A DNA stretch of 64,000 nt, taken from contig CM060731.1 of NCBI GenBank assembly GCA_030704615.1, positions 5,456,001-5,520,000 on the forward strand, read 5' to 3'. Under the pieces are notes generated by a model. That model had not been told where the DNA came from, searched no databases, and saw nothing but the letters and a program-made list of their open reading frames with translations. The position numbers were made by a program, and so were the translations under genes. Source of the DNA: Takakia lepidozioides (Eukaryota > Plantae > Bryophyta). This document shows, piece by piece, positions 13,746-42,897 of this stretch (position 1 is its first letter; every line of letters starts with the position of its first letter).

Positions 13746-15026
13746 TCAATGTCTCAAATGCGGGTGTTGGATCCTCCTCACCTTCATCTCAAGCTCTTCC
13801 CGCTGGGCAACAGTTTCGGCGAGACGTACACTGATAAGGAAGAAACGGTCTTGTAAATCCTCCAGCTCAGTTTCCTGGGCCTTCGTTTGCTGCCGTAGCT
13901 GTAGGAGCTCGCTGATCACTTGGTCCACGTCCCCAAAATTTTGCAACGCTGCGGCTTGGACATTTTGTTGCTTGGCAAAAGAACTATGCAGCTGCAGTTT
14001 GTACATGTTGTTTACCTCCAAGGCCTCGGCTAATTCTGTTTCAAGAGCAGCAACCCTCTCCAGCATCTTTGTGCCCCCTGGTGCGGCCTCTTTAACTGTT
14101 GGCTTCCTGTCGTCTAGCAGCTGCTCGTTTACCTCCTGTAGATGCTCCACTTCTTTTTGGAGCATCTCCTGCGTGCTAACTTGGAATTGGAGCTCGCGCT
14201 CACGGAGAGCTAGCACCGAATTCTGCTTTTGAAGACGGGTCAACTCCATCTGTAGTTGAATGCCAGAATCGGTTCCTCCTTCTAAAAGCTGCTCGTTTGC
14301 TAGCTCCAGACACTCGATCTTATTCAGAAAGTCACTCTCTTTCTCGCGGAAAGTTTGCTTTAGCGACTCTATTGCAACCGATTTGGACTTCAATGCTTCC
14401 TCGAGGAAGCTGACCTTCTCTCGTAATTCGTAGAGCTCTTTCGCATCCCGTGAATCAGACCTAGGAGACATCGATCCCACAAAACTAGCAGACCTTGAAA
14501 GCGACCTTGTCAGGAGGATTGTGCCATTCCTATCTCTAGCACTCTTCTCTCTCTCGTCCTTGCCTCGTTCCTGTAATTTCTTCTCAGCTCCCTGAGAAAG
14601 CGACTTTTCGAGTCTGACTGCAGAAAGAGCATCCACTTTCTGTTTCAGCTCCACCTCAAGTACCTTCATCCTCTTTCTGAACTCTTCTTTCTCACCTTCG
14701 ACCTCAAACATCTTCTGCTTATATTCAATATTCTGCAATCCCGGGTGATTGGGCTCCGATTGCAGCCCATCTTCCGGGGACCGCGGTGCATCTAGTGCAT
14801 CCGGCTCCGCCTGCAACTGAGGCTTCTCCTCCCCGCCTACAGGCACATTCACAGACTCGACCGTCTTTTCCAACACCTCTGAGGCCAATTCCAAACCCAT
14901 CACTTCTTGCGGGTCCACGCGGTCGGAGTCTGTGTGTTTACCAACCTTTGGCAACTGTGGCCCATCCACTAGAGAATCCAGCCCTCCCTGCAGTCGAAGC
15001 AGTTCGTCCTCCACCACAGCCCCCAT
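13746..15026 (-). CDS. Coiled-coil protein with the C-terminus of plant myosin-heavy-chain-related (NT-C2 family) proteins, single coding exon, ~426 aa
   Basis: Intact E/K/L-rich ORF, first ATG at 15026. C-terminus LETELAEALEVNNMYKLQL..ETELEDLQDRFFLISVRLAETVAQREELEMKVR is typical of this family. An upstream coding exon cannot be excluded. Confidence 0.75.
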   Translation of the reverse strand: MGAVVEDELLRLQGGLDSLVDGPQLPKVGKHTDSDRVDPQEVMGLELASEVLEKTVESVNVPVGGEEKPQLQAEPDALDAPRSPEDGLQSEPNHPGLQNIEYKQKMFEVEGEKEEFRKRMKVLEVELKQKVDALSAVRLEKSLSQGAEKKLQERGKDEREKSARDRNGTILLTRSLSRSASFVGSMSPRSDSRDAKELYELREKVSFLEEALKSKSVAIESLKQTFREKESDFLNKIECLELANEQLLEGGTDSGIQLQMELTRLQKQNSVLALRERELQFQVSTQEMLQKEVEHLQEVNEQLLDDRKPTVKEAAPGGTKMLERVAALETELAEALEVNNMYKLQLHSSFAKQQNVQAAALQNFGDVDQVISELLQLRQQTKAQETELEDLQDRFFLISVRLAETVAQREELEMKVRRIQHPHLRH

Positions 15027-16058
15027 TTCAGACTTAATTCCCCCGATCTCCTGCGTAACGCCCTGCAGCTGCAGTCCCTCTATTTGCACATCGTTGCAAC
15101 TTCATCGCTGGGACCACAGGGATCCACCCGAACTACCTTCCCCACAACCTCTACAATGACATCTCACTCGGTCATTTCCCGCATTCTGGCTCCCTGATCC
15201 CGCAGACCCTTCTCTCTCCCTACAACTCCAGTGGCATGTGATACTTCACCTGTGCGTCTTCACATAATGCAACCTTCAACAGGACCTTCTTCGCGCTGTC
15301 TGCGCTGGAGAGGATAGCGAAAGCGCGAGGAGAGATAGGCGGGCACGCAGATGCAAGTGCAATGCGAGCGGCGCGGTTGCTGCACAGGCTTTCTTTAGTT
15401 ATCATGTCACCTTCTCAGATACCCATAACCCAAATTCTCGTATCCATGATCTGCGCTACCAGAAATAGTTTGAGACTTGCCCATCTCATCGGTAGCAAAA
15501 CATCATGGCAACCCTCATGGAAATGCGAAAAAATGCCATAAGAACGTGAGGGTGCAGGAGGTGAAGGGCTGTTTCAAAATTGTGAGGAGATGGGGGTGTA
15601 ATGAGATGCATTGAGTTGAAGTGGCGCTGCAGTTAGTGCTAATTGGGATTTGGCTTATCTGTTGAGGGGACTGTGGCCCATCACATTAATGGGTTTCGGA
15701 GATTGGGTGGCTGGAGCTGCATACATTGAAGGCCCTTCTTTATTACTTGCTACTTGAAGCGCCCACGAAGTGGATGTAGGTGGGTCCTACCCTTTTTTGA
15801 AAACATCTCAAGGGGGAAAATCCCTTGCTCTTGTCCCTTGCTTTTGTTGATAAAATGAAGAGCAGATTGCGAAATTTCTGAATTTGACTTGTAGTGCTGC
15901 ATCCCAACTTATGTGATTTCCATGGAATCCTCTATGGAATAAACCTTGGGCTGTTGGAATAGAATTTTGGTACTGGATTCTCTTTTAAGGAAGAAACAAA
16001 TTGGGATTTGTTTTTTTCTTTCAAGGATTATCTGAATGTTTTCGAACGGGTCCCAGCC

Positions 16059-18781
16059 TTTTTCTTTTTCTTTTTTTTTTTAAAAACAGGGGGATATGCC
16101 CTGGTTAACTTTATATAAAATGTTTTGGGGGCTAGCCCTAATACATTATTTAGGATTATTTGGGGAAAAAAATTAAAACCCCTAATTGCCATAAGGCACA
16201 CTCACCGTAATCAGTGGATGGAGAACTTAGCCGGAGAGCGACTCCTTTGAGCAAGTAGCAAGACAACTGTGGCGACCAACTGTCTCAAGCGATCAATCAG
16301 ACCATTAATAGTAGAATTGGGATATAATTAGGCTAATCCGATCAGGAAGTTTCCTAGGGATTAGCGACCAGCCAATACCACCGGCTAATTATTGTTCAAC
16401 GGTAGTTGAGCCTAGAAGTTGTCGCTGTGGATTTTATGTGTTTCCAGTTAACCTCCCGGTCGAATTCCGGGGAAGTTTGCGTTGGATGTCTGCACAAAGT
16501 TTAGCCCAGGCCTTACGGGATTCAATACCCAGATCATAGAAGATGAGTGCCATGAATGAGGATATTGAGGTAGTGTTTCCAGAGAAGGTTATGGCGCATC
16601 TGGCTTCCCATAGGTGCCATAGGACGGATCCTCTAAGAGCTTCGAATACAGGGCATGGGAGAGATTTCTATTTGGATTGAGGGTTGTAATTGAGGAGGAT
16701 GTCAGTAACTGATAGAGGCCTGGGGCTCCAGTGTCTATAAAAATCCTTTACAACTGGCCAGATGGTACGGGGGGCCAGGCATCCCAGAAACGCATGCTCT
16801 ATGGTTTCCAGTATACCCACGGGGCAGCATGCGCAGAGGAGCGAGGAATGGAATTGAAGCCACTCCCCCACTTTCAGTACCCTGTTAGCAATCTGCCAGA
16901 GGAGGGTCGCCACCTTGGCTGGGCGTGTCTTGATCCAAATAGATCCCCAGATAATAGACCATTTCTCATTAAGAAATCCGTGGTGGTGCCACCTTGTGTC
17001 CCACTTAGATTGTAATGGCTTAGCTTTCAATAGGGCTTTGTATCCCTGCTTTGTAGAGTAGGTGAAGAATGGGTGGGGACCACTGGGAAAGCTCCATGGC
17101 CATTCCCCCAAATCCAGGGGAAGCTCAGCCAGAGGTCTGCCTAGGATCCAAGAGAATGTATTAACCTGCAGCCATTCGGCGGTGGTTTCCAGGGGTGGCG
17201 GGATAGGGTTCATGTCCTTGGAAGGAAGACTCCATCCACAGATTCTGACCGGGGTTAGGGGGGTCCAGGGAATGTGAATGATTTGATCTGAGAGGAGCTG
17301 AAGCAGCATTGAGCCCTGATTGATGGAGAAGGGGAAGATGGCATGATGCGAGGCAGTGGATTCTTGTACAAAGAAGATCGAGAGGCTGCCTCAGAAGATA
17401 GCCAAAGCCCAGTGGTTGCGCTGAGGCAACGTCGGTCCCAACTACAGGGTGGTTTGCCATAGGGTAGAGATGGATCTCTTGATTTCATCCAGGCCTTTGA
17501 TAGCTCTCGCTTTCCCAACCATTATGGCGATGGTGTCCAGTGATTTCCAGTCCCCATTTGCCCATAAATGACCGATCTGTGAAATTCCAAGGTGATCCTA
17601 GGCTGACCATCGTTTTGCCTCCTTCTTTTGGATAGCCGTTGGAAAGTTAGAATTGAGAAAGAGGCTTTGGCGAATGGTTTCGTAGAATGATGTAGGGTCT
17701 GCCTTTTTCAGGAATTTCCTTAGCTTGTCCCAGGCTCTCCATATGGTTTGCCAGAGCGGGGACCCTACCACCTTGTGTTCAAACCCTTGTGTCGCCCATC
17801 TAAAGGAGGGGTTCCATCTGGCTTTTTTGAGGGCTGAAGCCTGCATCATGTATGGGGCCACAAGGAACTTCCACCACCCCCCTTCTGGGCCAAGAAAACG
17901 AGGAATCCATTTCCCCAGGAGAGCCATTATCTGGGTTTCAGGATCTAAAACCCCCAATCCACCTAGTTTTTTGGGCATACAGATTTGTTTCCAAGCTACT
18001 TGTGGCCTTTTCCCCTGCCCAGCTTTTTGTGCGCCCCATATGAAGTTCCTTAGAAGGCGGGTGATCTCCCTGATATGCTTGGTGTCCGGTCTCCAGGAAG
18101 ATGCAAAGTACCAGATTCTAGCCTCTAAGATTTGTTTGGCTATAAGAGCTCTTCCTGAGATGGACAGATGTTTAGAACCCCAATATGAGAACCCTAAACC
18201 CTAAACCCTAAACCCTACAACCACCCTGGGTCCAAGGGGGATTACAGGGAGAGCGTTGAGACAGTCTCACGTCTGGCGCTTAAAGATTGGCTAGGATTGG
18301 GGCAAATCTCTGATCGTCCGAAAGGCCAATGCCAAAGGTGTATCCCAGCAGTATTGTAGATTCACCTGGCTGAAGCCATTTGAGGCCATGTTGGGAGCCC
18401 CAGGTTGGTGGTGGGCCCAAGGTGGTAGCCGTGAGGTCACCCACCAAGAGAGCTGAAGTCTTGTTCCAGTTCACCTTGAACCCAGAGGCCGAGCAGAACG
18501 TGTTGAGTGTGTTTGCCGTAGAGTCCAGATTGGCCGTATCTGCCTGGAGCATGAGGAAGGTATCATCCACAAACATAGAATCTATTATGTAGGTTGCCTG
18601 GTGGGTGTAGAAATTAGTCACCAAGAGGCCCTTGATGGCTGGGTTGTTTTGTAGCATATAGCCAAGAGAGTCGGCCACTATCAGGAAGAGGAAGGGGGCC
18701 AAGGGGCATCCCTGCCTTACAGATCTATGGAGCTCAAAGGGTTTGGAGAGTGCCCCGTTTATAATAACTCTGCTTGTGGAT
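16059..18781 (-). mobile_element. L1-clade LINE, decayed ORF2 3' half with poly(A) tail
   Basis: RT motifs SVRQGCPLAPFLF and SMFVDDT (18280-18780). VAWKQICMPKKLGGLG and zf-RVT region (LLWQIANRVL..C..ETIEHAFLGC). T-run at 16059-16081 is the tail. Contains stops and frameshifts; 5' part cut off at 18781. Confidence 0.9.
18190..18275 (+). repeat. Interstitial telomeric repeat (AAACCCT) x ~4 plus ~58 bp of non-L1 sequence, inserted in L1 ORF2
   Basis: 18190-18217 is AACCCT(AAACCCT)3A. The L1 frame reads PILANL on one side and SYWGSKHLS on the other. Confidence 0.9.
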
Positions 18782-19179
18782 GGGGGGTTGCTATTCCATG
18801 AGCTCATGAGCCATGAGCGGGCATGGCTCACCCATGAGCCGCAAAGTAACACACTTCGAATTTTGGCAGATTTTTTTCGGGCCCAAAACTATAAAATAAT
18901 CGAAAGTAGTATAAGAAGAGAAGGTTTTCGAAGATTTCCGCGCTCATGCTGGAAGCACTCCGCTCATAAGTACCAGTGTCCGCTCATGACTTGGAGCCCA
19001 GGCTCATGGACCGCCAGGCCAGGTCATAGAAAAACTGAATTCTGGGCAATAACGGCACCGAAATTATCCCAGAGGAAGAGACGCAAGCGGAATTAGGATC
19101 CGGGTTTGCAGACTCCGAAAACGCAATGGCGACCTATAACCGTGGATAGTACTGTTGCAGAAGTGCAGGATGGTTGGGT

Positions 19180-19477
19180 ATAACGGCGCCGTAATTGGGC
19201 ACAGGAAAAGAAATAGCCGGCTGAAGGCTTGGGAGTGAAGCCAATAACGGTGCCGAAATTGGGCTCCGCCAACCAAATACCCGGCTGAAGCCTCCGGAGT
19301 GCAGCCAATAACGGCGCCGAAATTGGGCCCCGGAAACCAAATACTCGGCTGAAGCCACCGGAGTGCAGCCGATAACGGCGCCAAAATTGGGGCCCGGAAA
19401 CCAAATACCCGGCTGAAGGCTGGGGAGTGCAACCAATAACGGCGCCGAAATTGGGCTCCGGAGAGCAAATACCCGCC
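19180..19477. repeat. Tandem repeat, 64-bp unit x ~4.7
   Basis: Units start at ~19180, 19243, 19307, 19371, 19435: AATAACGGCGCCGAAATTGGGCCCCGGAAACCAAATACCCGGCTGAAGCC..GGAGTGCAGCC. Confidence 0.9.
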
Positions 19478-20169
19478 TTACGTTGAAGGAGTTTTGCAAA
19501 CTCTCCTGAAACTGGTGCGGATTTGTCTAATAAAAGCACACATGTCGGAGGAAATAGAAGTTCTGCCGCATACGACATTGACAGTGCAGCAATGATATAT
19601 CCCTCTTCCGCCGGCCTCACATGGGCATGTTTTTTTTATTTTGGTTATGTCTATAAATGGATCCGAGGAAAGCATACATTGTGTGGAGATACACGGGTAT
19701 TGTGGCCTATTTCAGCGTCGTTATTGGTCTGTATACTGCATAGTGCTTCCTTGTTACTGCTCTTCATTCAATTTGTGGTGATTTCGCAGCCCATCCTGGC
19801 GTTTTCGTCCACCTTTATGAGAAGACTCCAATTTGCTACCAATACATTGTCAGTGTTCTGCAAATGTGATGCTTTTACAAGATTGCTAGTTTTGTGTCCC
19901 AGTGGGAAGGGTCCTACTGCACATTCTAGCATTTGCATACTGCACCTTGTGCAAACAACAATCCATACGACAAAGGACACATCCCAGCATACTGGCAGTG
20001 AATTGCAAAAAACCTTAACAGAAGATTATCCAAGCATGTATATTGGCACAGGGAAGCTACTTGATTTCCGAATCAAAATGTATGTGCCATGAGTGTCGGC
20101 GAGTCGAAACATGTCTACTCTAGCATGCATGACCTATGGTCCCCTCGCCCAAGAAGAAGGAACTCGAAC

Positions 20170-22822
20170 TGGCCTCTCAAGGACCTTTGTGCAGCTCGTT
20201 GAAACTCAGTGTTGGAGCATGGATGAAGACGTCCACTGCGGATATGCAAATCATGCGCTTCAGAAAATGTAATAAAGGTATTTGCAGGGGACGTATGCTG
20301 CATTCTTCGATTCCATAACAAGGAAGTCCTCACAGTTGCAAGCTGGGTACTGAGAAACCGTGATTGCATACACGACACTGCGCGCAGCAGACCCGGCTGT
20401 TGACAACTGAAATATGCGCCCCATCCCGGGGTGAGGAACATCCCTGCAACCTTGCACTATGCAGGGCATTGCAAGAGCGTTGGCCATCCTGGTGTCGTTT
20501 GCCTTTGTTGGTGGCCGCCGTCTTTTCAATTTCCCCCACCGATGGGTGGGCCAAGCTGCGGGGTCACCCACTGGTATGCGGGGCGAAGAGCTTCTCGTGG
20601 GAGGAGGATGACGACTGGGAATTGGATTTCGTGGAACGTTTGTCCTCTCCACCAGTCGAAACCCTGCACTTCCTAGAGCGTCTGCCTCCTCCAGGGTAAG
20701 ATCTGTACCAGTTGCCACAGGCTAGACTGCTGGTGGTTCAGGCATGCCTTGTACACCATACTTGGGCTTGCCAAACACACACGACATGATGTCGTGCCTG
20801 TAGAACCAAAACTCCTTTAGTGTGGCCTCCACAAACTTTGCGCACACAAATCTCCCTGTGAAGCAAGGGATAGGCACACCGCCCTGCGGGCTCCTCCGAA
20901 TCATCTCATTGCATCTCTGGTTGGTGTCGACACGAACAGCACAACAAAACAGAACAATTGTCAAGTACAGAAATGTGTTACCTGTCTCATGTAGTCTCCA
21001 AACTGGCGGAATCTATAGTGTCACCAGGCAAGCCACGTTTGCAGTTCTGGCTGATCTTTCACATCCACTGCTCCTGAAGACACCCACCAGGCGCGTATGG
21101 TTGCAAACTCGGTCTCTGCCTCGTCGATGGAACTCACATTTTTCCACGCAAGGCACATACTGATATGATCCTGCCGGTGGCGTGACGCCACGAACCTTTT
21201 CGTGTTTTGCGTCAAACTTTGCATGAAGTGGAACCCGCAAGATCTCTCCTTACCTTCCATTGGAGTCTTTGGGTCGTCCCCATATACCCTCCTCACTACA
21301 GCCCAGTTCACCTGGGCATTGTCAGCCATGAAGCCCCTAAAATTGGGAGGGGGCAACTTCGCTCTCGCCATTTGCTCATTAATTCCGCGCCACATATGCA
21401 ACTCCGAATCTGTGTCTTCTCCTTTCATTTCGCAGATAGCAATGGTCATCAACTTTCTGCAATGTGGGTCGTATACATGTGCCCCCATTGTCACCCAATC
21501 GTGGTTGGTAATTTGCCTGATGTGGTCGAACATGACCCAGCAATTTGAGAGGTCTCCACTGGTCATCCGCTTCACCAAATCGACACCGCTCCCCGGTCCG
21601 CACATTGACATCTTAAATATGAAGCACCTGTCCGTCTCTGAGCCTTGACTAGGAAAGAAGTTGCCTTGGATGAAGTCGTAGCCGCATGTGCGCTTCACTT
21701 CCAAGATGGAGTGCATGTCTGATCCTCTTCCGATTCGTTTCTTGCACCCGACAATGTTGTTCCTGACATTGGGGCTGCACACATGGGAGACAGCTTCCAG
21801 CAGCTCCTTCATGTCCCCCTCGCCCAGCTTCTCTCTTGTGCTTCCGTCCTCCGACATTATTCTGCCAATTGCAATTCTATGTGCGGATGCGAGCTGTATC
21901 TGCTTTGGTTTTGCCCCGGCCTGAACCTCACCTCCTCCTTGATAATATTGTGGGCTTGTTGAAAAGCGACTCTGCAATTGCCTCTGGCGACGGGGTGGTC
22001 ATGCTTTCCGATGTGAATGCATGCTCTGGTGCACGCTGGGCCGACGGTCCCGACGTAGTACTGCTTGGCGTTGCACACTGCCATACACGTAGGGGCTGCG
22101 TTGCAATGGGCACACTTGAACGTCCCTGCAGGAACTCTACCTTGAGGCCAAAATGGGGTCGACGAATTGCCAATCCAGTCAGTCTCATTCCGGGTGCCTT
22201 TGCTCGTGTAATGGTAACATGTGCTCGAGAAACATTTAAGATGCCTAGCACACAATACATATCTCACTCGAACTCCATCACCCAGGTTGGACGATGAAGT
22301 TTTGGTGACACACCAAGGGTGGCCGTCATGTTTCTTGTTCATTCCTGCCAGCATGCCGTCTGGGTCTGCGCCTGCTGGCACTGGAGGGAACTCGTAAATA
22401 GCATTCTCATCCACAACTTCAGGCAAAGTTTCCATAGAATGGATTGGAGTTTTGTCGTAATCAAGCCTAAGAAGGTCACTGGAGCGGGAACCCGTTGTCT
22501 TTATCCTCCGCAATATGTCGATTACTGAGCGGACGGAAGTTGAGTCGGAGGGTGTGTGCTCATTGTTTGCCAACTTCTGAACATTCCTAGTGACGGACGA
22601 CTTCAAAACATATGATGGAAGGACCATACAGTCTTCATCGTCACTGGATAAGTCGTGGACGACTGTTTCCCTGTTTTCCTGGATTTCCCTTTTCACATGT
22701 TTGGGCTTCTCTGCTTGTGAAGAGGTGCCCACATCCTTCATGGCAGACTTCACATCTTGCACGCCAGACCCTCTTGTGGAAGGAGGATCAACCAAGTTCC
22801 AGCATGGGAACTCTTTAGGCAC
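20170..22822 (-). pseudogene. MULE-type transposase: GCM-like Zn domain, DDE core, SWIM finger; frameshifted
   Basis: HDGHPW..C..C..C..CAHC..C..HIGKHDHP (GCM/WRKY-like). Core WVMFDH..GAHVYD..FRGFMADNA..CGFHF. SWIM CNCEDF..PCKYLYYIF. Split over ORFs 21857-22822, 21021-21977, 20722-20964, 20260-20718. Confidence 0.75.
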
Positions 22823-22954
22823 GATTTCACCAATTGCACTGTACCGGATGGATTCAGAAGCTGGGAGTGAACTGGAAATTGGATTGTTGTGCCGAAATCT
22901 GGTTATTTTTGTATCATATTTTCATGTTATTCTTTTTTTTTTTCTCCATGGCAG

Positions 22955-25900
22955 GGTAACAGAGAGGGCCTTCGTGGAAACTCATCTGGCACATACGCTC
23001 TACAGAGTGCAAGAAGTGGGAACAGCACCGCTGACAGACTTCCAAAAATCCCTCGATCCCGAGCTGTACAGGAAGTCCCTTGCGAAAGCGGATCGCACCT
23101 GGTACCGACCAACATTGGACGCCATGGTGGAGATCCTCTATTCGGTGAGGTTCATCTCAAATTTCCCGATTTAATGCTATTTGTTGCAGGGATCAGTGGC
23201 CTGACTGTATCCGCTGGGTATGGGAATGCAGACAAACATCAAGGATGACTTGGCCTATGCCAAAAGGCAGTTCTTTGATAATGATGCCCCCAACAAGGCG
23301 GACGCGTCGATAGAGAGTCACATTGTGCAGGCAGGGAGACAATCACGGACCAAGTACAGGTCCAAACTTGTTAAGCAAGTTGCAATCGCTGACCCTGGGT
23401 CTTCATCACATCGCAGTGTCCTGTGTTGAGCCGGCGAAGAAGGTAAGCATGTGTTTGTTCTTGTTTTGTGTCTTCTCACGATTCTCATGATGAAGTTCTT
23501 ATGTCTGACCGATGTTAGGCCATGCAGACTAGGTGGCTACGAATCTGGAACGGCCATACAAACACGAAGCTACTATACCACTTTCCCATCGAGCCAACAG
23601 ACGACAAATGAACGACTGGCTCAATGTGATGACTTGGTGGCATCAGGTATAATTTCCTTCTCTTCTGTGTGTTGGACATCATCGCAATTTCAAATTCATG
23701 AATGTTTTGGAAACCTGCACTGCTGCAGGTACTGACCCACGCCCAGGAGCAATTGGATTGCAAAACCACCACTTTCAAGTTACAGATCGACTGGACGAAA
23801 CCGGAGACAATGGAGAACTACGTGCAGTCTTGGCAAGGGCGCTTCGCAAACCTCTTTTTCAGAGAAATTGCAAAGGCAAGACGCAGCGTATACATCGAAG
23901 AGCAGAAGGGTGCCGACAAAGCGGCAATGCATGTCCTGTTCAAGTAATCCGCTGCCAATGCATCCCCCTATTTGCAGTTTTGGTGATTTAGCTAAGCAGC
24001 GGTGGGTATTGCGGCGCCGAAATATACCTCTGCAAAATGTGAGTGCTGGGTAATTGGGGCACGGTCCACTGCGTATTTCGGTGCCGAAATACCTTGTGCA
24101 TTGAGAACTTCCTCTTGCATGATGCATCAGTAGAATGATTTTTGTTGAACTGCCTCGTGATTGCAGGTACATAAACTTTGCACTCATTCCGTCCGGAGCC
24201 ATTCAAAGAGTTCCACCATTCTTCCTGGCGTGGAGGACACCTGGAGGTCGTGGTACGATGTACATATAAGTAATGGCGAAGGAGTGGCATGCCGAGCATT
24301 TGGTAGACTGTCCCTAGTATGTGGATCTCCCAAGTGGGACCGTTGACCTCTCGGAGGTTAACTTGAAGAAGGAAGCGAATGCCAGGGCTATGAAGGCGCA
24401 ATCGGATCCCCAACCAGAGGACGTGGAAAGACTGAAAGCAGAGGAGGCAGCCAAGCAGAAAGCACTGAGAAAGTCAGCCAAGGCGGCAACGTTGGCGAAG
24501 GAGCAGATGGAGAAGCAGGCAACTGAGCAACCCAAGGACAGGAAGAAAAGAACGCGCAAACAGGGGCAAGAGACGAAGACCCCCACACCCAAGAAGAAGA
24601 AGCAGCAACATAGTCAGCCAGATGACGAGGATTCCTACGACGATTTCCAGCAGGATAACACCCAGGGGGCCACACCTCGTCCGAAAATTTACAAGGGCCA
24701 GCGCTCCGGGGGTTTGGCTGCGAAGAGATCACTATACGAGGATGCACCTGACAAACCCTACCGTGCGGTGCACATTACGGGCAGGGAAGTCCTCAAAACA
24801 TCCACAATTGTGGAGTGTGTTAATGAAAATTTCCTAACTGCTCTGACCAGAAGGCTGGAGAAAACGAGATTGAGGAAGGCGATCGAGGCCCACCAGGGGA
24901 AGGGGAAGAGGAAGGCCACTGGCAATGATATGGAGGACACTCCTGGCTACACAAAGATGATGGAGTATTTTGTGGCGATGAGCCACGGCAAAAAGAGCAC
25001 AGTTGGGGGCAGGGCGGTGAAAGCCTCCATCGACATGATCCTTGTGGATATCCCGGATGGGCAGGAGATACTGGGGCTGGGCTCACTACCCTGGTGGAAC
25101 AAGTACGATGAAAGATACTGGAGCCACACATTCGGGTTCGCAGCCAACATGTTGGACGACGACGGCTGTGTTGTTGTGCTAGCAGCCGATGGAGAAGTCA
25201 CTGAGAATGATATCAAAGTATGGACGGGGAGAAGTGCAGCACCCATCCTGAAAAAGATCTGGACTTGCATCAACACGCAGGGTCTTCTCAACGATGGTCA
25301 GAAGGTATGTTGCGGTTCTCCTCTGCTCTGCCAATTTCTGCGCCGAAATTGCCCATGTACGTGTAGGCCACCTCTCACGTTCTCATTTCCTTCTTTGCAG
25401 ACTCTTATCTTTTAGGCATTCTGCTTCGTGAAGGAACATTCGAAATTCAAATTACGTCAAGCAGGCAGACTTGTTGATTCCACAGTTGATCCACTGGAGT
25501 ATAACGCCCTGTTCAACCATGTGGGAGAGAAGGACATGCTTTGTGATTTGTCGGGCAAGCCTTGGAGGTATGGCAGGACCAGGAGTCATGCATTCATCCA
25601 GACGCTCATGGAAACGTGTACGGATGTTGAAGGCAGGGTCCTCGACGTCACTGCAAATACAGGTTAGAGCGTTAAGTGATTGCGGCACCGAAATTGACAC
25701 CGTTTCCGATTGTGTATGTTTGCTTGCGCGAGGAAGCGAGTCATTCTTGACTTTGGCTGTGGTTGTGTCGTATGAATTTGCAGGTGTCTGTATGTGGGCT
25801 GGAAGGATGTCCAACCGATTAGTGTTCTCATTTGAGGAGGATACGGCCTTATACGATTTCAATTTGGCGGGCCTATAGCGTCTGCCTCCGACTGAGAATT

Positions 25901-26167
25901 ATAATGAGGCGTGAGGCCAAACATGGAATTGTGAAAGGCAGAGTAGGCAAGTTCGTCATAGAATCCGCGTCCGAGAGCGAGGGGGATGATGAGGACAGTT
26001 CCGCACCCAGGTGGACAGTTCCAGCTAGTGAGGATGGTATTTTTGAGGGGAGGGCTTCTCAGAGTAACAGCGGTAGCGGCAATGCAGGTTCGGAGGCAGG
26101 TGGAAGGCAGCCATCCTTGCATGAGGCCGGGGATGCATCGGACAGTGATCGCGGATCCTCACCATAG
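22955..26167 (+). pseudogene. Spliced TE-borne gene with a C-terminal beta-class N4-cytosine/N6-adenine DNA methyltransferase-like domain (N6_N4_Mtase fold)
   Basis: Exons approx 22955-23144, 23190-23442, 23519-23646, 23729-23943, 24167-25304, 25401-25662, 25784-26167. Motif IV-like SIDMILVDIPDG (25021-25060), then FAANMLDDDGCVVV. Splicing gives FIQTLMETCTDVEGRVLDVTANTG/VCMWAGRMSNRLVFSFEED (motifs X-I-II). Premature stops at 25413 and 25876; start not seen. Confidence 0.7.
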
Positions 26168-26415
26168 CAAAGTCTCATTTGGATCCTTTTGTTGTACAGT
26201 TCTGAAACACTTAATGAAAATATTGACGATTTCAAAAATCATTGTGTTCAGACTGTATGTCCGATTCCCTACATTTCTTCCGCCAACCACAATGTAATAA
26301 TAAAAGCAGAAGAGACGCAAACTTAAGTAAAGAACCCTACAAGTAATTTTTGCACACCAGCGAACCGCGAACTTGAAGCCATGAAAACCCTACCATTTCT
26401 AACATTCCTATTGGG

Positions 26416-26700
26416 AATTTCGGCGCCGAAATAGCCCAGTGTGCGCCTTCATAATATGGGCCTTATAAAATTCCATGAAGGAATTACTGCACCAAAATAT
26501 CACGATGAAAGCCTTCAGCACAAGGCACTTCAGCACATTCCACTTGGGTATTTCGGCGCCGAAATAGCCCGCTTTGCGCCATAAAATACGGCACTATATC
26601 ACATTTCAAAAGGAAATTTCGGCGCCAAAATACCCCGGTGGATGTCTTCAAAACACCACTTTAGCACACTGCTCTTGGGAATTTCGGCGCCGAAATACCA
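26416..26700. repeat. Cluster of palindromic ATTTCGGCGCCGAAAT motifs
   Basis: Copies at ~26417, 26550, 26616, 26681 and a degenerate one at ~26485. Confidence 0.8.
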
Positions 26701-29039: not shown

Positions 29040-29990
29040 CAAGCCAATGACCCATGTCAAGCAATTTAGATCCATTGCTTGACCCAACACATGTCGGCGT
29101 GATGCCTCTGACAGAGCTGGCACAGCTGTAGTGCCCGTGGCAAATCCCATTGCCCGTTCTCGCTCATCTGCATTGGGCTCCACCAATTGTTGTAGCACAC
29201 TGTCCCAAATCAACCCAGGACCATTGTCTCAAAAAGCATGAGACGAGGGAAAGCTCATGAGCATAGGCAAGGCCGCACGTGGCTGCCCCACTCGATTTAC
29301 CACTGCTAGAGGTGGACGGTCATTATGTCGCACCCTCTGTGGTTTCCTCCCTTGGTCCAAAATGCCCTCAACTGTGAGATTGGGTGGCCGTTGAATGGAA
29401 TCGTATGCTCTCTTGAGCAGCTCTGGTGGTGTAAGATTGGTCCACCACAATCGAGGTCGATGCGCTCGTGATCCCACCGCTGCTGCATCCAATAGCACCA
29501 CCGATCCAATCCAAGACCGCACCTGATGCATACTGGCCATAACCCTAGCCCAAGAGTCCCCCATAAGAGGAACATTCTCCAAGATATAGGCTAGAGGTTG
29601 CACTTGCCTCGTCTACAAGTCACGCAACACTCTCAACATCTCATAAAACAAATGCGATCGTGCATCATGCAAGCCGTTCCCATGACATGCGGGAGAGTGT
29701 CATTGGCAAGGCCATCCAGCTATCACCAAATCAATGGCACCATGTTGGTCCAATTTATCCACCCCCAACAAGGTAATGTCTGCTGGCAAGGCCTTTTGAT
29801 ACCCTTGAATTGCTGAGAGAGACAACAACTCAGGATACCGGTGTGTGAGCAAAGCGATGTGGCGCATAGAAATACGCCGAGCTATCTCATCATTCTCTAC
29901 ATATAAGTACTTGCGTACTTTAATCCCAGCTTGCAACACTCCTGCAAGCCCAGTGCTCATGCCTCCAAACAGGTCTAGCAAACAAATCCC
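29040..29990 (-). pseudogene. C5 DNA cytosine methyltransferase domain (DNMT3-like) within the gypsy polyprotein
   Basis: Motif I LLDLFGG, II YVEND, III DI, IV DLVIAGWPCQ, VI ILENV, VIII AHRPRLWWTN, IX ERERAMGF, X RRHVLGQAMD. All in one frame with in-frame stops at 29700, 29613 and 29229. Confidence 0.93.
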
Positions 29991-30128
29991 TGAGTCAGGT
30001 GGTTGCCAGGTAATGGGCACTGTATCCAAAGGAGCTAACTGAGGAGGTCCAGGTGATGTCACTGAACTCCCCTCAATTACCAATGGATAGGCCTCCTGCC
30101 ATGCTTGGTGCACATACTCGTCTGCTAC

Positions 30129-33570: not shown

Positions 33571-33760
33571 CCAAATCTTGGCCCTCAAGGACCCCAAAAA
33601 GTCCTTCAGACAAGTTGCCAAAGACTCCTTAAGCTCGCCAAATATTAGCCTCCAAGGACCCCAAAATAGTCCTCCAAACAGCCCTCCAAAGGCTCCAAAT
33701 GTTTGCCAAATATTGGTCTTCAAGGACCCCCAATAGTCCTCCAAATAGTCCTCCAAACAC
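33571..33760. repeat. Degenerate ~68-bp tandem repeat x3 in the gypsy A leader
   Basis: CCAAATATTGG.C.TCAAGGACCCCAAAA.AGTCCTCCAAACA-like units at 33571, 33638, 33706. Confidence 0.7.
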
Positions 33761-35111
33761 CCCTTCAAGAGCTCTTCAAGTGTCTTACAAAAGCTCCTCA
33801 AAGGACCCCCCAAAGATCCTCCAAAGGCAATACTCCTCCAGATACACCCTAGATGGCATACACTTTTAATGAAAACGTATGGTAGGCAAAGTATCTCCAC
33901 TTGTATCCATACACTGTTCACAAAAGTGTATGGTGGGGCAGAGGGAGCCCATACACAGTTTCTTGAAGAGTATGGAGACTAGGGTTTGTAGAGTATAGTA
34001 AGAAACACCTTCTTCATGGTATCTTCCCCCCTAACATGCATGCAAGATTGCATTATCTTACTTTGCAATGCATTCATCCCAAATTGACAAGTTCCTCTTG
34101 ATCTCCTTTGGATCTCATAGCAAGCTAATGTGCCCAATGACAAGCGCCAAGCCTTGCTTGAATTTGAATTTTGTATGTCATCTTCATATGCTTTCCCTTG
34201 CATGGGCTAGTCACATACACTTCCACCTCTTGACCTAGGTGTTGTCTTCATTCATCATAATATTGTGTATCCACACCTCTATTCGAGAGCTCATCTTCTC
34301 AAACTTGAAGTCACAAGCCCCAAAAAGCATCACTAGAAGCATTCGTGTCTTTTCCGATTCGACTGCATGTCCGCGACCACTCCGGGAACCACTTGGTAGT
34401 AAACGGGACTACTGGAGAGTCGAAACAGACAATGTGGGCCCACGGGGGCATTTCAGACGGCGGACAGAAGTGGGGTCAACGACTCCGGAGTCGTAGCAGA
34501 ATTCCGGGCTATTTTACGAATTGCATAAATACATAAAATTTGAAAAAGCCAAAATTACAAGTGGTTGTAATTACTGCACATGCGACTACAAATTTTCTTT
34601 CCTAATTCGATTAATGGAATAAAGATAATTATTCATTAAAGTGAATATGTAGTCGACTCAACGACTCCATGAACCACTGCGCATTCATTGCACCCATGAC
34701 TCGGTAGCACATTTGCTGACGTGGCTTTCACAAAAAGAGGTAAACAAAATGTGGCCTTGGGGGAATAGATATTTTAATACGTGCTGCCTCCACCTGGCAG
34801 AGACAAGGATGCAAGTACTGCGTCGGACATGGCGGGACGTGGGAATGGAAATCCTGACACGGCAAGGCCTTCGTATACTGTGAGCGCGCGTAGTGGCTTC
34901 TCAGAACGGTGTGACATCGGGGTCTTGGTCATTCATCATTTACAGAATGTGCTGGATGGAGGCACGATGGAGCGCGCATACGGGCATGCCCTTCTGGCAT
35001 CAATTCCCAAGTATCCACGCAAGGTGAGGCTGCTGAATTGGGTTTTGCCCGTCTAGTTTTCTGACAGCATGCTCGAAACGTTCATAGTGCCATTGAGTGG
35101 CATCGCAATAA

Positions 35112-35812
35112 TTTGATGTGTAGCTGCTTTTTCATTTCACAAGTTATGCAGAAGGCGTCACAGAAGAAGATCGCAAAGACGTCAAGGCTGAAGAATATGC
35201 CCTTTGGTTGTGAACTACAATCATATCATGCCAAACCCCATTTTCCCCACGCAGATGAGGGAGACATTCTGCATTTGCGAGTGGGACTTAATTCCTCTAA
35301 ACCCAGCTTGAAGGCAGTTGTGACACCAGAGAAACTGGAAACTACCTCCAAGAAAGTTGAAACTCGCAAGATAGTCATGTATTCGTCTCATTATCTCCAA
35401 CTGGGATTCCGAGTTATCATCCGACCCTTTACATGTGCGCTGGAATGGAGTATAATTCTGGTTTAGGCAGTTATTGCCACCAGACGTTCGCTTCTCCAAT
35501 TTTTACATTTAAGGATGTGTCTGTGTTTATGGCACTCTTTCTCCCAAGGAGGCCTGAGTACCCCCCTGTACTTGCAAGAATTTGATGTGTAGCTGCTTTT
35601 CCCTTTCATAAATTATGAAGAAGCAGTCACAGAAGAAGATCGCAAAGAGGTCAAGGCTGAAAGCGTTCATTAAGGTTGTGAACTACAATCATATCATGCC
35701 AAACCAGCGGCGGCAGATGGTGTCATGAGACATTCTGCGATTTGCGCATAGGTGGACTTAATTTTGATGTTGACTTGAAGGCAGTTGTGACACCAGTGAA
35801 ACTGGAAACTAC
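35112..35812 (+). repeat. Diverged direct duplication of ~230 bp (35112-35345 and 35580-35812) inside the CACTA
   Basis: Shared TTTGATGTGTAGCTGCTTTT..CACAGAAGAAGATCGCAAAGA..GGTTGTGAACTACAATCATATCATGCCAAACC..GAAACTGGAAACTAC. Confidence 0.85.
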
Positions 35813-36643: not shown

Positions 36644-39600
36644 TCAGCTGGGCTCACTATCTGTATCCAAATAATCTTCCCCTTCACTACCCACATCTGC
36701 AATTTGCCTTGCGGTAATTACCAACCCTGGAATGTCTTCCTCATTAAAGGTAACTGCTCCTTCCAAAGAGACTGGTTCGGCCGTATCTGGTAGATTTTGT
36801 GGTTCCCTCAGACCCTCGTGGTCGGCATTCTCCCCTAGGTCCAGATCATGGACGTCGGCCACGACTCGTTTGGCCCGGGGGTCCTTGTGAAGAACCACCT
36901 TCCATCCCGGCGCATGGGTGTCATCTGAAAAGAAAACTTGCTCAACTTGCGATGGGAAGATGAATGGCTCTTCATCTTGTGGTAGCATTTTTCTGAAATC
37001 AGCAAGGAGGAACCCGTACTCATCCCGTTTCATGGTGGCATTCTCTCCTACCATATTGGCTTTTACCCAAGAACAACGGAATAGAATTGGCTTCACAAGA
37101 CCATAGTCTAGTTTAAGGATCTCTTTGATCACTCCTACATATTGCACATGGCATGAAATTGGATTCCGATCTCGTGCACAGCTCCTACTCTCTTGTTCAA
37201 AAAATGATGCCACTCCGCTGTCATAAGTCACCAGGAGGCTGGTGTTGGCATCGTCCACTCTATAGTGATTGCCATATGCTTTCATTGACCGGTACGAAGT
37301 GGCAATCAGCCCTGGGGGAATGACAGACTCACCATGCCCTCATCTGGTCCTCGTTCTCTGATGCGTACACTGCAATTGCAGATCTGACCCACACTGTAAA
37401 GGGCTGCAGCTCCTCCATTGTTGTGGGGTACTCCACCGGGGATCTGCGCCTACGACCGCCCCTCCGCCATGCTTTTGCAAATGCACTCCGTTCCGTTTTC
37501 AGGCGGACCTTCTCCGCTGCGTACTTTCTGGCAGAAACCAAATAGAAGCTGCAACTCAGTCCCCCTGACCAACACCGTGCTGTACATGCATGCCACATGC
37601 AGAGTGTGTGTCCTTTCAAGCACACTGTAGTGATGCAGCCTACTTCATAATCACTTGCAAGCAACAACCAAGATCTACGAAACACCCTCTGTAGTCGTCT
37701 GAAGCACCCTGTTAGTACACGATCCCACTCCCATAGTGGCCGGAATGACTTGTGACAATATATATGTAATTCCAGCATACAAAGACCATTAAGAATAGCA
37801 CAGGAGGGATGTAAGTTGGCACCCACTGTCTCCATGGTGTCATGGTTGTTGTGTTGTTCAGCACATAATCATGTGCCACATCCCGAAGGCGCGGGCTCAT
37901 GGCACGCTTTGTTCCACCACCTTCTAGGACCTCGCCTACAACTCCTTCTTCCTCGTTCTCGTCCCACACCCGTCGTTGTATTGCATCAAATGAAGACATA
38001 TACTCTGTCATGAAGCCCAGGGCTTCGTCGCGGATGTAGCCCTCCGCCATACTCCCCTCTGGCCGTGCCATGTTGCGTACATACCCCTTCAGATCCTTCA
38101 TGTACCTCTCCATGGGTACATCCACCGGCTGGCTACGGGCCCACACACATGCAACTCCTCTACAAGATGCACTAGCAAGTGCGTCATGACGTCAAAGAAT
38201 GATGGAGGGAATTCTTTCTCCAGCAAACATAAGGTCATAGCCACATCCTCATGCAACGATGTAATGTCCCTCGGATCCCACACCTTCGCACAAATCTTCC
38301 TAAACACTCGACTTACACGCATTATGGCTGTTCGAGGACCTGGCGCCATCGTACCCCGAATGCACACTGGCAAAATCTGTTGCATCATCACGTGTAGATC
38401 ATGTGACTTCATCCCCGACCATTTCTTGTTTATGGCATGCTTTTGGAAAGCACCCGAGAATCCGGTTGGCACTTTCATGGCTCCCAATGTCTTCAAAAAA
38501 TCCTCTTGCTCTGATTTGGTCAGGACGTATGATGCTGCTGGCATGAGCACTTTGCCTGGTCTATTTGGATCAGGCCTTAGCCACAGATGTGACCGTATCC
38601 CTTCAATCTCCATGTCCTTTCGTACGTTTATCGTATCCTTCTCCCCAAAGATAGTCTTCAGAATGTTCTCGCAGAAGTTCTTCTCACAATGCATGGGGTC
38701 CAGGAGGTACCGCTGCAAGAGGTTCTGAAATGCCAAATGTCCTCCCATGACACCAAGTTCTATGGGCAAAAAAAGTAGAATATGTGGCAGAAGTTGTCCA
38801 TGTTACTACATTCTGCTTTCAACAACTCCACGATCCTCTCCACAGTGAGGTGTACGACTTCAACATCTACTGCATAGTAGTTACACTGACTTAGGAGTTG
38901 GTGGAAGGACTCCTGACAGTAAAGGTAATTCCAGGAAGCACAATGTGAAAGAAAGTGAGTGAATGAATGGGGGGGGGGGGATTCATGCACCTTCCAGTAT
39001 GGCAAATCCCAAAGGATTGTCCGGCGCTTCACCCCGTGCTCCATGGCTGGATCCGCACTACTTCCGTCTCTCCCTCCAATCTCCATGAACGCCTCTTTCT
39101 CCTTTGCAAATTGCAATGTCTCCTCCGGTGTCACAACATTTGGTGCCATTCTCTTTTCAACACATCCATTGAAGTGCCTTCTTGCTCGTCGGTAGGGGTG
39201 GTTTCTTGCAAGGTAACGTCGATGCCCCATGTATATTGTCTTCCCTAGTGGCTTTGAGTGCGTGAATCCACATAGGGCCCACAAATGGGGCACCCTTTGT
39301 AGCCCTTCGTCTTGCAACCCGCAACAAGGCCATATGCGGGGAAATCGTGGATTGACCACATGAGTATGGCACGGAGGGTGAAACTCCGTTGCCCTACTGG
39401 TTTCAAAATGTCGTAAGCTTCAACTCCAATCCATAGTTCCTGTAGCTCTTCAATCAATGGTTGCAAATACACATCTATGTTTGCATTTGTCACGGACTCC
39501 TTGCCTGGAATCAAGAGAGACAACATGACAAAGAATTTCTTTGTTGTCAACCATGGTGGCAGGTTGTATGCCACCAACTGCACGGGCCATGTGGACCATG

Positions 39601-40719
39601 TGCAACTCTTTGATCCGTATGGGTTTACTCCATCCGTAGATACAGCCAATCGCACATTGCGTGGGTCCTCGGCGAAATCGGGCCAAGTTGCATCTATATG
39701 CTTCCATGCAAGGGAATCTGGGACATGCCTTACCAAACCATCGTTTGAGGCATTCCTGGAATGCCAAGTCATGAGCTCACTAATGGTCTTGCATTTGTAC
39801 ATTCGTAATAGACGGGGGATAAGGGGAAAGTGCCTCAACACCTTGGCTGGCTGTTGTAACCTGCCCACATCATGGTATCGGGCTGCACCGCATTTGGGGC
39901 ACTCCATAGCATCCTTGTACTCTCTTCTGAAAAGTACATGTCCTTTTGGACATGCATGTATTTTCACGTAGTTGAGGCCGACTTCCCAATCATTTGGTTG
40001 GCCATGTGACAGCTTTTTGGCATTTCATTTGGTTGTGGAAGCAAGTTCAGCCGAAGCAAAGAGAACAACTCGTCCACAAAATGGTCTGAGACACCGTGGG
40101 TTGTGCACAGGTTCATCAACAGCATGGTGGTAGCAAGCTTTGTGGATTTGCATCCCTCGTACAGTGGCACACATGCTTCTTCTAGTGTCATGTGTGCAGA
40201 ATTCAATTCTCCATCTCCACCTCCTTCCACGCCTTCCCCCACGTGAATGCCTTCATTTCCTGCGTCATCACCATCCCCAGTTGTCGCAGCGCCGTCCCCC
40301 TCTTCAGCATCGTCCATGATGTGGAATGCTTCCTGCAACATTCGAGTAATCTCCACCCCTCCGTCCATGCCTGGTTCATGTCCTGCGCCCATGACATAGT
40401 CCTCGTCTGGCCTGTTTGTATGGCTCCCTCGGGGGTGTGCATTGTCCAATTGTGCCCACTCCTCATCGTCTTCGTCTGCAGGTCCATCTCCAATCCACAC
40501 CCGAAATGCTTCATGTCTTTTGTGGTGAAGGAGATGTGTGCGCACACCGTCCTCAGATCTACTTGTAGTGCCCAAACAACGTTCACATGGGCATGGCATC
40601 CTTGAAAGCCCAAGGGCTCGGGCACGTGCCACTTCTCTTTCCCACAACTTGTCATCTCGGGTGTTCTGTCTACAGGGGTGATTAATTGGAAGTCCTCCGC
40701 ATGGGCGAGGGGAACTCAT
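36644..40719 (-). pseudogene. CACTA transposase TnpD (Transposase_21, DUF4218, DUF4216), spliced and frameshifted
   Basis: MPCPCERC; IHACPKG..ECPKCG; PRNVRLAVSTDGVNPY; YNLPPW; IHDFPAYG; LDPMHCEKN; MKSHDLHVMMQ; FPPSFFDVMTHL..GPV..RWMYP; RPEGSMAEGY; EPFIFPSQVEQVFF. Confidence 0.95.
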
Positions 40720-42403
40720 TTTTGTTGGGGAGCCTCTTCAATGCTGTTTGTGCACGCCGTTGCAGGGGGCCGGATTCTCCTTTGCAGAGATTCCTCAATT
40801 TGGCTCTGCCACTCCCATTTCACTACCGTCAATTCCCTCCTCCTGCAATCTCAATTTGAAAGGTTCAGCCGCACATCCTTTGGCAGAGAAGACAGTTGAC
40901 ATTTTATACCAACCGGTAGATTCCACAACATGATGAAAAGTTACACTCACCAGCAAACCATTTAAAAGCCATCACGATGCTTCCCATCATAACTAGAATC
41001 TTTTCAACAAGACACTGAGAGAAATGACCAAAATCGACTCAAACAACGACATCCTGGAAAACCACCTGTCTCTACAGTTCGTGTGTGTGTGAGGAATCGG
41101 AGGACGTACGTGGAATTTCAATTTTCACGATTGAGGACGTTGTGATCTTGGGCATATGGTTGAATGTGTATGAACTGTGTGCATTGAAGTGTGAACAACC
41201 TGACTACAAGGCCAGAACCTGCGCCACTTGTCTTAGGCCATCTCCAAATCACGTTTCGGCGGACAATCCCGTTCCGTTGCCATGAAATTGCACCGTGGCG
41301 GGAAGGGAGTCCATTTGTGTGGCTCTATCACCATGGCGGGAGGGGAGCATGTTAAAAATAGAGCATTGCCCTGCCACTTCACTCATTTGTTGTTTGCACC
41401 TTCTTCCACCATCTTTCTTACTTAATTCTGATTCTTGCAATGCTGCCCTTGAGACGGCAACTGCAAGTGACCGGATCCTTTGATCGTCGCATTCAAAGAC
41501 ACTTACGTGTAGCAGATCGCAGACCCCCAAATGCCTGGAGAGAAAGCCAGACGGCAGTCAATGCATGCACGGTTGTTTTGCACTGGTTGGGATGGAGTGG
41601 GGTGCAGAGGAGGCGTGTTGTGCCCGAGTTTGCATGCCTAGCATCCTGCAGCCAGCGGCTTTTGCACGTTGGGCAGCAGTACCCTCTGCTGTATGATTAC
41701 CATTTGTGGTAAAGACTCACCGGCCTCCCCTGTCCACTTGGGTCTTGGGACAACGACTTATGGAGTATGTAGACAAAGTTGCATGTCGCGCAGGTACATC
41801 AAAATCTCCCATGTAACATAAACCCATTTCTCATTCATGCTGCATGTGATCCACGGGGTAATTTCCATGTTCTCCCAGCTGATGTGGGTTCGCAAATTCT
41901 CGGTGTGTAGGTGTGTGTGCGAGGACCTCAACCTGGCATGGTGCGATGGGTGTCGAATGGACCCCTCTACGATGGGAGAACCACTACTACTGAATCATTT
42001 GGCAGAGCAACCACTACAGTTGAGTTTGTTTTTGCTGAATCATTTGGCAGAGCACTGTGTTCACTTCTCACATCTCATGCGCATTTTCTCCAAGAATGCA
42101 TGTTAAAGCGGAGCCATACACGGGATCATGCAGTGTGTTTCCTTCGCCTCATTTGAACGAAAAAAAATTAAGGATCCATGTCAGTTGTGTGAATCACTAC
42201 ATCTAGTTGTCTGGAGATTGTAAGTGGTTTAGGGTTTTAACATCTCAAGTCGAAAGGCCATAGTGTCGGATGCACGACACGTGTTCATATTTGAGATCAA
42301 CAAACGGCCGGATCTTCACTACAGATTGGGGGGGTGTGTGATCACACTCCCCTCCTTGTCCTTCTTTCCTCCTTGCATGTCCTTGCGTCTTCCCGCGTCT
42401 TTG

Positions 42404-42494
42404 TCTTGGTCATGGTCTATGTCCTCGCTCGTCTTCATCTTGGTCATGGTCTATGTCATCGCTCGTCTTCATCTTTGTCATGGTCTATGTCCAC
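42404..42494. repeat. 34-bp tandem repeat x ~2.7
   Basis: Unit TCTTGGTCATGGTCTATGTCCTCGCTCGTCTTCA. Confidence 0.8.
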
Positions 42495-42897
42495 GCCTAG
42501 TAAGAAGCGCTTGACCGCCGAGGCAGCATCACCTCCTCCCACTTCTGCACATTCCAGCCCGCGGTGCAAAGGAGCCCCCGCCTGGCTCGACTGAATCGGT
42601 ACAGATGGCGTCGGTGCAGAGGGAAGGCCAGAGCGGTGGCAGTCTTCGAGTTTGGATTTTGACACAAGCGATATAGCATGGGCGACGACAATGAGGTGGA
42701 GACAGTTCGGCGGAAATTGCACCTCCATCTGCAGAGTCTCTCCAAAAGGTGCGCAAACGGCACAAAACCGCTGCGCATGAGGTGAGTTCTACCCCTACTG
42801 GGTTCATGTTTTCTGGGCGTTGAGTTCTCCTGAAACTGAAACTGGGATGCACATATCCACAAAGTTGTTCAAACAGATCTCGTAGTATACAGGGCAG

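Follow-up and report, generated by a model that had tools for sequence, protein, structure and literature searches.

The DNA analysed here, referred to as the window, is a stretch of 64,000 nucleotides of contig CM060731.1 of the moss Takakia lepidozioides (assembly GCA_030704615.1, positions 5,456,001 to 5,520,000). It contains one copy of a repeated element that resembles Mutator-like elements (MULEs), which carries a transposase gene and, on the opposite strand, an accessory gene for a protein with a predicted methyltransferase (MTase) fold, and whose non-coding parts harbour many copies of a short palindromic motif. The features of the element are listed below; the exons follow our own gene model, and X and L numbers denote contig sets and related loci, respectively.

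18782..26699, no strand: repeated MULE-like unit, delimited by contig depth steps and contig exit points; this copy is decayed, centrally deleted and right-truncated
18782..19030, plus strand: candidate left terminus, putatively transposase-bound, a G run followed by GAGC/GCTC repeats; interrupts the reverse transcriptase frame of a long interspersed nuclear element (LINE)
19049..19064, no strand: motif copy (centre 19056, central CA)
19180..19475, no strand: left array, 4.6 units of 64 bp with five motif copies, 3' of the transposase gene
19709..19724, no strand: weak additional motif copy (centre 19716; 13.9 bits; also a two-mismatch match), absent from a preliminary description of this DNA
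20180..22867, minus strand: MULE-like transposase gene with a Cys/His-rich domain, a DDE-like core and a SWIM-like end; broken, 5' end deleted
22867..22868, no strand: probable central deletion joint, which would have removed the 5' ends of both genes (contig exits; first exon of L021 unmatched in the window)
22883..22898, no strand: half-broken motif copy in an intron remnant ahead of the first retained exon
22955..26167, plus strand: accessory gene encoding a helical region, a charged linker and a beta-class amino-MTase-like domain (DIPDG, DVTANTG); pseudogenised copy with seven retained exons
22955-23144, 23190-23442, 23519-23646, 23730-23943, 24167-25304, 25401-25661, 25784-26167, plus strand: exons of the accessory gene
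24008..24090, no strand: pair of motif copies in intron 23944-24166, spaced by 67 bp
25334..25349, no strand: motif copy in intron 25305-25400
25679..25694, no strand: motif copy in intron 25662-25783
25894..25896, no strand: deletion joint relative to the family, other copies holding more sequence (loose ends on both sides in X2, X5, X6 and X7)
26386..26699, no strand: right array, five units of 65-67 bp with one motif each, downstream of the accessory gene; the last motif is followed almost at once by the break of the copy

A search with CGGCGCCGAAAT, allowing at most two mismatches, gave 27 strand-wise matches in the window, against 1.55 expected, and none of 100 shuffled sequences reached this number. 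Twenty-six of these matches fall within 19053-26696, inside the repeated unit, which places the enrichment in the element relative to the rest of the 64 kb, the region on which motif frequency outside the family was measured. Sixteen sites could be aligned to the palindromic consensus ATWWCGG-NN-CCGWWAT, with centres at 19056; 19187, 19251, 19315, 19379 and 19443 (left array); 22890; 24015 and 24082; 25341; 25686; and 26424, 26490, 26557, 26623 and 26688 (right array). The preliminary description had placed the motif in the 64-bp units, near 19053 and 22889, in introns and in the 3' flank, and all of these locations were recovered. The palindromic nature of the motif was likewise recovered, but the perfect 14-mer given for it, TTTCGGCGCCGAAA, occurs only three times. 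The site at 22890 has a broken left half and the one at 26490 is degenerate. A symmetric matrix derived from the 16 sites ranks the same 16 at the top, which is partly circular, followed by the weak site at 19716 and then by scores of at most 6.9 bits. Exons and the transposase span contain none of its top 40 sites, and the earlier claim that the motif is confined to non-coding DNA holds for 16/16 aligned sites. Introns make up 12% of the accessory gene body in our own intron model (732 of 5988 bp), for which four independent intronic events have a probability of about 2e-4. Two further tandem arrays lie in the window at 33571-33757 and 3132-3368, with periods of 67 bp and 62/31 bp, respectively; they are similar in length to the arrays of the element and lack the motif.

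Such a distribution could in principle be a neutral by-product, i.e. an old tandem unit that was spread by slippage or ectopic repair and tolerated in non-coding DNA, or a cruciform hotspot without any reader. The array-like spacing of the two sites in intron 23944-24166 is in agreement with this explanation, as are the break of the copy immediately behind a motif at 26699, its break close to another at 22867, and the palindromes of up to about 90 bp in the related locus L021. We nevertheless consider it improbable, as a core of 16-26 bp is the sole sequence common to the left array, the introns and the right array, the units being different elsewhere, and as the same core recurs in distant families with different arms. 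The pattern of CpG decay also argues against it. While 36 of the 48 motif CpGs are intact, as had been stated earlier for most of them, deamination has affected 6/16 central sites and only 3/32 outer sites (Fisher p=0.044). The central pair is a tolerant position and behaves as a spacer; relatives read AT or TT there. For this reason, the resemblance to the restriction site GGCGCC, which had been put forward as a link to bacterial restriction-modification, is incidental. The hallmarks of such systems, namely a fixed GGCGCC, a cognate nuclease and an active MTase, were not encountered: the centre is variable, the gene is a spliced eukaryotic one, and no match to nuclease families was found among the frames of the element. 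The observed/expected CpG ratio of the element is 0.72 (0.68 with the motifs masked), and elsewhere in the window it is 0.31 in the LINE, 0.46 in the Ty3 element, 0.57 in a CACTA-like stretch and 0.78 at 55-58 kb. CpG retention is therefore weak evidence, since the CpG content of the element is not unique within the window.

The element is repeated as a whole, its two genes and both arrays behaving as a single unit. Depth was taken from contigs of two public runs from different studies and does not equal copy number; it rises from 1519 to 81116 at about 18784 and drops past about 26700 in X1 (7394 contigs), and runs from 5 to 89 to 9 across the unit in X5. A LINE fragment borders the unit on the left and a Ty3/gypsy element on the right. 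Family contigs leave the window at 26699 (X2, X5, X7) or 26696 (X9), at 25894-25896, and at 22867 (DNA contig X1-4 and possible-RNA contigs of X8 and X9), indicating that the right end, an internal piece and, presumably, the 5' ends of both genes are missing from this copy; the remainder of the element was not found elsewhere in the 64-kb window. No terminal inverted repeat (TIR) or target-site duplication (9-11 bp expected) was found at this copy, a search that is uninformative because the right end is truncated. The left terminus contains 11 GAGC/GCTC in 249 nt, against a window average of 1.9. Terminal GAGC repeats are common to the left end in the window and to the related loci L001 and L007, and a G run precedes them in the window and in L007.

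The window copy is decayed relative to its family, from which it differs by 73 A>G and 66 T>C changes, compared to 33 and 32 in the reverse directions. Other copies have a perfect motif at 19383 and 26627, where that of the window is imperfect, in agreement with the earlier expectation that the motif is conserved among copies. In the part of the comparison that was listed, which limits this test of conservation, two motif-bearing introns show 17 differences between family and copy; none of these falls in the 12-bp cores and one lies at the edge of a left arm (25680). The viral contigs searched contained no relative of the transposase or of the exons, and neither motif pattern.

The accessory protein has 26 relatives at E<=0.001, with named members in Ceratodon purpureus and Adiantum nelumboides, and the family profile matches M.CcrMI (E=1.2e-5). 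An AlphaFold model of the Ceratodon homologue is confident only in the MTase-like domain, with a predicted local distance difference test (pLDDT) score of 84-95 in most core blocks, and this model matches CcrM (Foldseek E=2.3e-12) as well as M.BceJIV, M1.HpyAVI and rotifer N4CMT. Both the profile and the Foldseek matches have the permuted Rossmann fold in which motif IV precedes motif I. As modelled on the Ceratodon homologue, the gene is thus predicted to have a beta-class amino-MTase fold. Pfam gave nothing significant for either gene of the element, the Atlas no usable match for the MTase stretch, and a search with exon 5 no longer homologue. The clades of N6-adenine MTases listed in a survey include, in its accessible text, no such land-plant clade (PMC4738411).

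The part of the earlier proposal that has become doubtful is that this protein writes N4-methylcytosine (4mC) or N6-methyladenine (6mA). Amino-MTases have the catalytic motif [DNSH]PP[YFW], the aromatic residue of which stacks on the target base (PMC4738411). In the 30 proteins examined, 22 strand-4 motifs were readable and none of them has this signature, nor does any of 12 loci or the window copy. Most read D-x-P-[ED]-[GN], the aromatic being replaced mostly by Glu or Asp, and the FxGxG-like motif I for binding of S-adenosylmethionine is degenerate, with D-x-T/S-A-x-T-G aligned to DPFxGxGT. The replacement of DPPY by D-x-P-[ED]-G suggests that the accessory protein is likely not a standard methylase. 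It could still be an active but unorthodox modifier that recognises and modifies the palindrome, 4mC or 6mA then blocking 5-methylcytosine (5mC) formation by the host. The well-predicted fold and the signs of selection in the family (an invariant D and P-x-W-N, and a nearly invariant WRG-x-x-E-x-D block) would suit an enzyme, as would the invariance of A and T at positions 7-8 in 32/32 half-sites of the palindrome, and rotifer N4CMT recognises a motif in tandem repeats (PMC8885841). With the target-stacking aromatic replaced throughout and motif I degenerate, we regard this explanation as very unlikely.

The transposase shares 37-43% identity with 21 unnamed proteins and is collinear with a gene on the related contig L011. 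Pfam searches of its homologues gave Transposase_mut in one of the 21 (E=0.034) and SWIM in L011 (E=2.9), both weak, and no match was found in PDB. Candidate signatures of a MULE DDE transposase with CxxH and SWIM were recognised by eye; because Pfam support is weak, the label MULE-like stems in part from these signatures. The name GCM, previously given to one of its domains, goes back to a sequence pattern and was not confirmed by Pfam or PDB. The stretch 22260-22867 is matched by possible-RNA contigs of two studies (X8, X9), which have about 480-600 nt of 5' sequence that is absent from the window; at 22260, next to a sequence resembling a GT splice donor, both sets switch to 29 foreign letters that are identical in the two. 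Alternative splicing that leaves out the DDE core could account for these contigs, as could exonisation. Their RNA origin is a guess, as none of the listed runs is on record as RNA, and they are not counted as evidence of expression.

Ten metagenome loci and two contigs of one assembled genome carry the intron-bearing accessory gene, and the core was counted over 13 related loci. One of these loci, L009, also has pieces of the same transposase on the strand opposite to the accessory gene. Downstream of the gene, L001 has a tandem array whose 139-bp units hold a palindrome of 26-28 bp with TCGGATCCGA at its middle; in L021 the array has 107-bp units, likewise built around TCGGATCCGA, and lies some 190 bp ahead of the ATG. 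L021 was retrieved after the core had already been used as a search pattern; in the 4.8-Mb assembly that holds it, the units of its array are the only 14-mer matches. The core TCGG-NN-CCGA gives seven matches in 4 of the 13 loci, compared to 0.27 in shuffles (the L001 and L021 arrays, and one match each in L003 and L007). Among the 256 palindromes of the 4-2-4 type it alone is present in at least three of the eight locus groups as well as in the window element. Out of 1792 spaced patterns, just one other, which is A/T-rich, is repeated like it both in the window element and in two groups. The arms flanking TCGG/CCGA differ among families. As far as the 3' flank, L001 and L003 share 87% identity, but their arrays cannot be aligned by blastn except for the core, a divergence that recalls the turnover of VANDAL targets (PMC5735166).

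The accessory gene has other arrays, intronic or flanking, in L007 (1-440 and 3074-3467), L004 (1-341) and L010 (1-356), with periods of 126 bp, 64 bp and 31 bp and other sequences; the units of the 3' array of L007 contain the half-site TCTCGGA. Contigs C58, C80 and C134 of assembly G001 (L021, L011 and L012) are intron-containing plant transposon contigs inside a cyanobacterial assembly, which points to contamination by high-copy plant repeats.

A core that is conserved across plant lineages would also suit a conserved host transcription factor, e.g. a germ-line or spore-stage activator, whose site was co-opted by the element, and the promoter-side array of L021 could be seen in this light. 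We judge this highly improbable, as there is no strong match in the 56 kb of the window outside the element and as the arms are family-specific.

Very probably, to judge from the arrangement and conservation of the sites, the palindrome is a dimer site for a protein encoded by the element itself, be it the accessory protein as a binder or as an active enzyme, or the transposase. The recurrence of the same palindromic core in relatives is what makes a docking site for such a protein likely. Beta-class MTases act as dimers. We tentatively favour, at somewhat less than an even chance, a homodimer of the MTase-fold accessory protein that docks on the palindrome without catalysis and opens the element as VANC proteins do. 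In this mechanism one subunit would read each half-site of ATWWCGG-NN-CCGWWAT in the non-coding DNA of the element, the two central bases serving as spacer, and the arms outside TCGG/CCGA would make recognition family-specific. More of the protein would be bound along the element thanks to the tandem and intronic copies, and, writing no standard methyl mark, it would keep the element open and transcribable.

The main rival is the transposase, because of its higher conservation and the behaviour of AtMu1. Its Cys/His-rich domain might bind the palindrome for assembly of the ends, for self-activation or for both, the accessory gene then being a neighbour with another function. In favour of this explanation, arrays occupy both outer non-coding regions of the element, and the identity of 37-43% among transposases suits a conserved core better than the 26-33% found between the MTase-like domains of the window, L001 and L021. 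However, the element has intronic motif copies at a depth of 2.5-4 kb, and L021 has copies on the promoter side of the accessory gene, positions that are not needed for pairing of ends, and the separate GAGC repeat common to the termini of the window, L001 and L007 is an alternative candidate site for the transposase. In addition, the 4.1-kb transposase contig L011, although truncated, has no core. Binding by the transposase is thus possible, though on balance rather unlikely, and the internal and promoter-side sites, together with a different motif at the termini, are the reason for favouring the accessory protein.

Several observations weigh against the accessory protein as the reader of the palindrome. 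That the core is kept across such divergent MTase-like domains fits the better-conserved transposase (~40%) at least as well, and the transposase of AtMu1 by itself binds members of its family, at its cognate ends, and reduces their methylation (10.64898/2026.08.24.746577). The fold was modelled on the Ceratodon protein and not on that of the window, and CpG retention, as given above, is not peculiar to the element. Presence in at least four loci is not rare, being reached by 6 of the 256 4-2-4 palindromes, and the lone core matches in L003 and L007 are weak. The core is absent from 9 of the 13 related loci, most of which are short and end near the gene; the intronic arrays of L004 and L010 lack it, and the array units of L007 have a half-site only. 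Finally, copies of the core within introns were seen in no family other than that of the window; L001 and L021 have none in theirs.

In L021, which is a complete relative, the accessory gene begins with a 210-codon first exon that contains WDGNHR, a ParB/Srx-like signature. This exon is unmatched in the window, while three later frames of L021 match window exons 1, 3 and 5-6. Its sole match in PHROG is a ParB-like family (E=0.25, weak), and in the Atlas, by language-model features, it lies at 0.92-0.94 to clusters of DUF3723 (31-47% of members) and ParB_N (11%). Pfam and NCBIfam gave no match, the score of a five-sequence ParB profile was equalled by 21 of 500 shuffles, hhalign assigned a probability of 2%, and a single-sequence model had a pLDDT of 35. 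A tblastn search of phages and plasmids gave nothing useful, and 300 other genomes yielded one weak match, which contains stops. The putative ParB-like domain is therefore a lead only. It would be clearly unlikely, on such similarities, that transposons of seed-free plants captured a prokaryotic ParB-methyltransferase fusion, in which a nucleotide-dependent ParB/Srx-like module loads at parS-like palindromes and the altered MTase shields, reads or modifies DNA against silencing. In bacteria, ParB is loaded as a CTP-dependent clamp on its palindromic site, from which it spreads. The clustered palindromic sites, the WDGNHR of the L021 exon and its features near the DUF3723/ParB_N clusters recall ParB/parS; in contrast, the exon is absent from the window copy, and a helix-turn-helix domain or ParA did not turn up, no search having been aimed at them. 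DUF3723 is known as cargo of unknown function in fungal Starship elements.

By analogy, the best reading of this family is a self-targeting protein-plus-motif module that is similar to VANC and built from different parts. VANDAL elements have a short motif amplified in tandem repeats of introns, intergenic and terminal non-coding regions (PMC5735166), and the layout found here, with the motif in tandem repeats, introns and ends, agrees with the resemblance proposed beforehand. VANDAL elements are of Mutator type and the present one is MULE-like; each has an accessory gene, and in each the arrays change from one related family to the next, although here the core is shared and only arms and units differ. 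The motifs of VANC are 8-9-mers without palindromic symmetry and vary with the family, in contrast to the palindrome described here, whose core is conserved and whose arms vary, and binding and demethylation have been demonstrated for VANC (PMC5735166), whereas here both are putative and deduced from sequence. The accessory protein is set apart from VANC by description, an amino-MTase fold being its only recognised domain. The AtMu1 transposase and Spm TnpA are likewise element proteins that bind motifs of their own family and lower methylation, but AtMu1 lacks an accessory gene and its transposase binds at TIRs (10.64898/2026.08.24.746577), while the present sites are also intronic and accompanied by an accessory gene.

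In its fold and in the order of motif IV before motif I, the accessory protein resembles M.CcrMI, M.BceJIV, M1.HpyAVI, M.RsrI and PvuII, and as a bacterial-type enzyme in a eukaryote it resembles N4CMT (PMC8885841) and Marchantia DN4MT1 (10.1101/2021.02.12.428880). The known beta-class MTases are host genes or restriction-modification enzymes with a DPPY/SPPY-type motif (SPPY in N4CMT), unlike the spliced, transposon-borne gene with D-x-P-[ED]-[GN]. An MTase domain on a mobile element has a parallel in the DIRS1 retrotransposon, whose N6-adenine MTase is inactive (PMC4738411), and MTase domains also occur as DNMTs in retrotransposons of dinoflagellates and charophytes (PMC5890265). These belong to other MTase classes and to retroelements, and the accessible text of the sources describes no cognate motif array. 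No description of a MULE-like element with such a gene or motif was found in the literature searched; subscription journals and supplements lay outside this search and may bear on novelty.

Some neighbouring features of the window deserve mention. A plant telomere-type repeat (AACCCTA, 4.6 copies) is inserted in the LINE fragment at 18190-18222. A long coiled-coil-like frame at 13746-15101 (minus strand), amid transposon fragments, is probably a host-gene exon. Frames resembling CACTA/En-Spm transposases, recognised by eye, lie at 36644-40737 (minus strand); they are accompanied by a repeat of 34 bp (42396-42496) and by a duplication of 468 bp (35105-35812). The Ty3/gypsy element (~26.75-33 kb) has, between gag/protease and reverse transcriptase, a broken frame at 29229-30128 (minus strand) with C5-cytosine-methyltransferase motifs, the top PDB matches of which are DNMT3C (E=0.014), DRM2 and DNMT3B. 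It resembles the DNMT-bearing retrotransposons of charophytes (PMC5890265), the host being in this case probably a land plant.

Sequence-specific counter-silencing by DNA transposons has been well studied in flowering plants (VANC, TnpA). The present family suggests that a comparable protein-plus-motif module has arisen from a bacterial MTase fold in mosses, ferns and relatives. Natural motif variants with the same core and different arms are paired with protein variants, and the Ceratodon gene models KAG0605740 and KAG0624017 are apparently uninterrupted; with these pairs and a tractable moss, the recognition code and any effect on 5mC are directly testable. If the altered active site is functional, it would represent a new base-modifying or base-reading chemistry.

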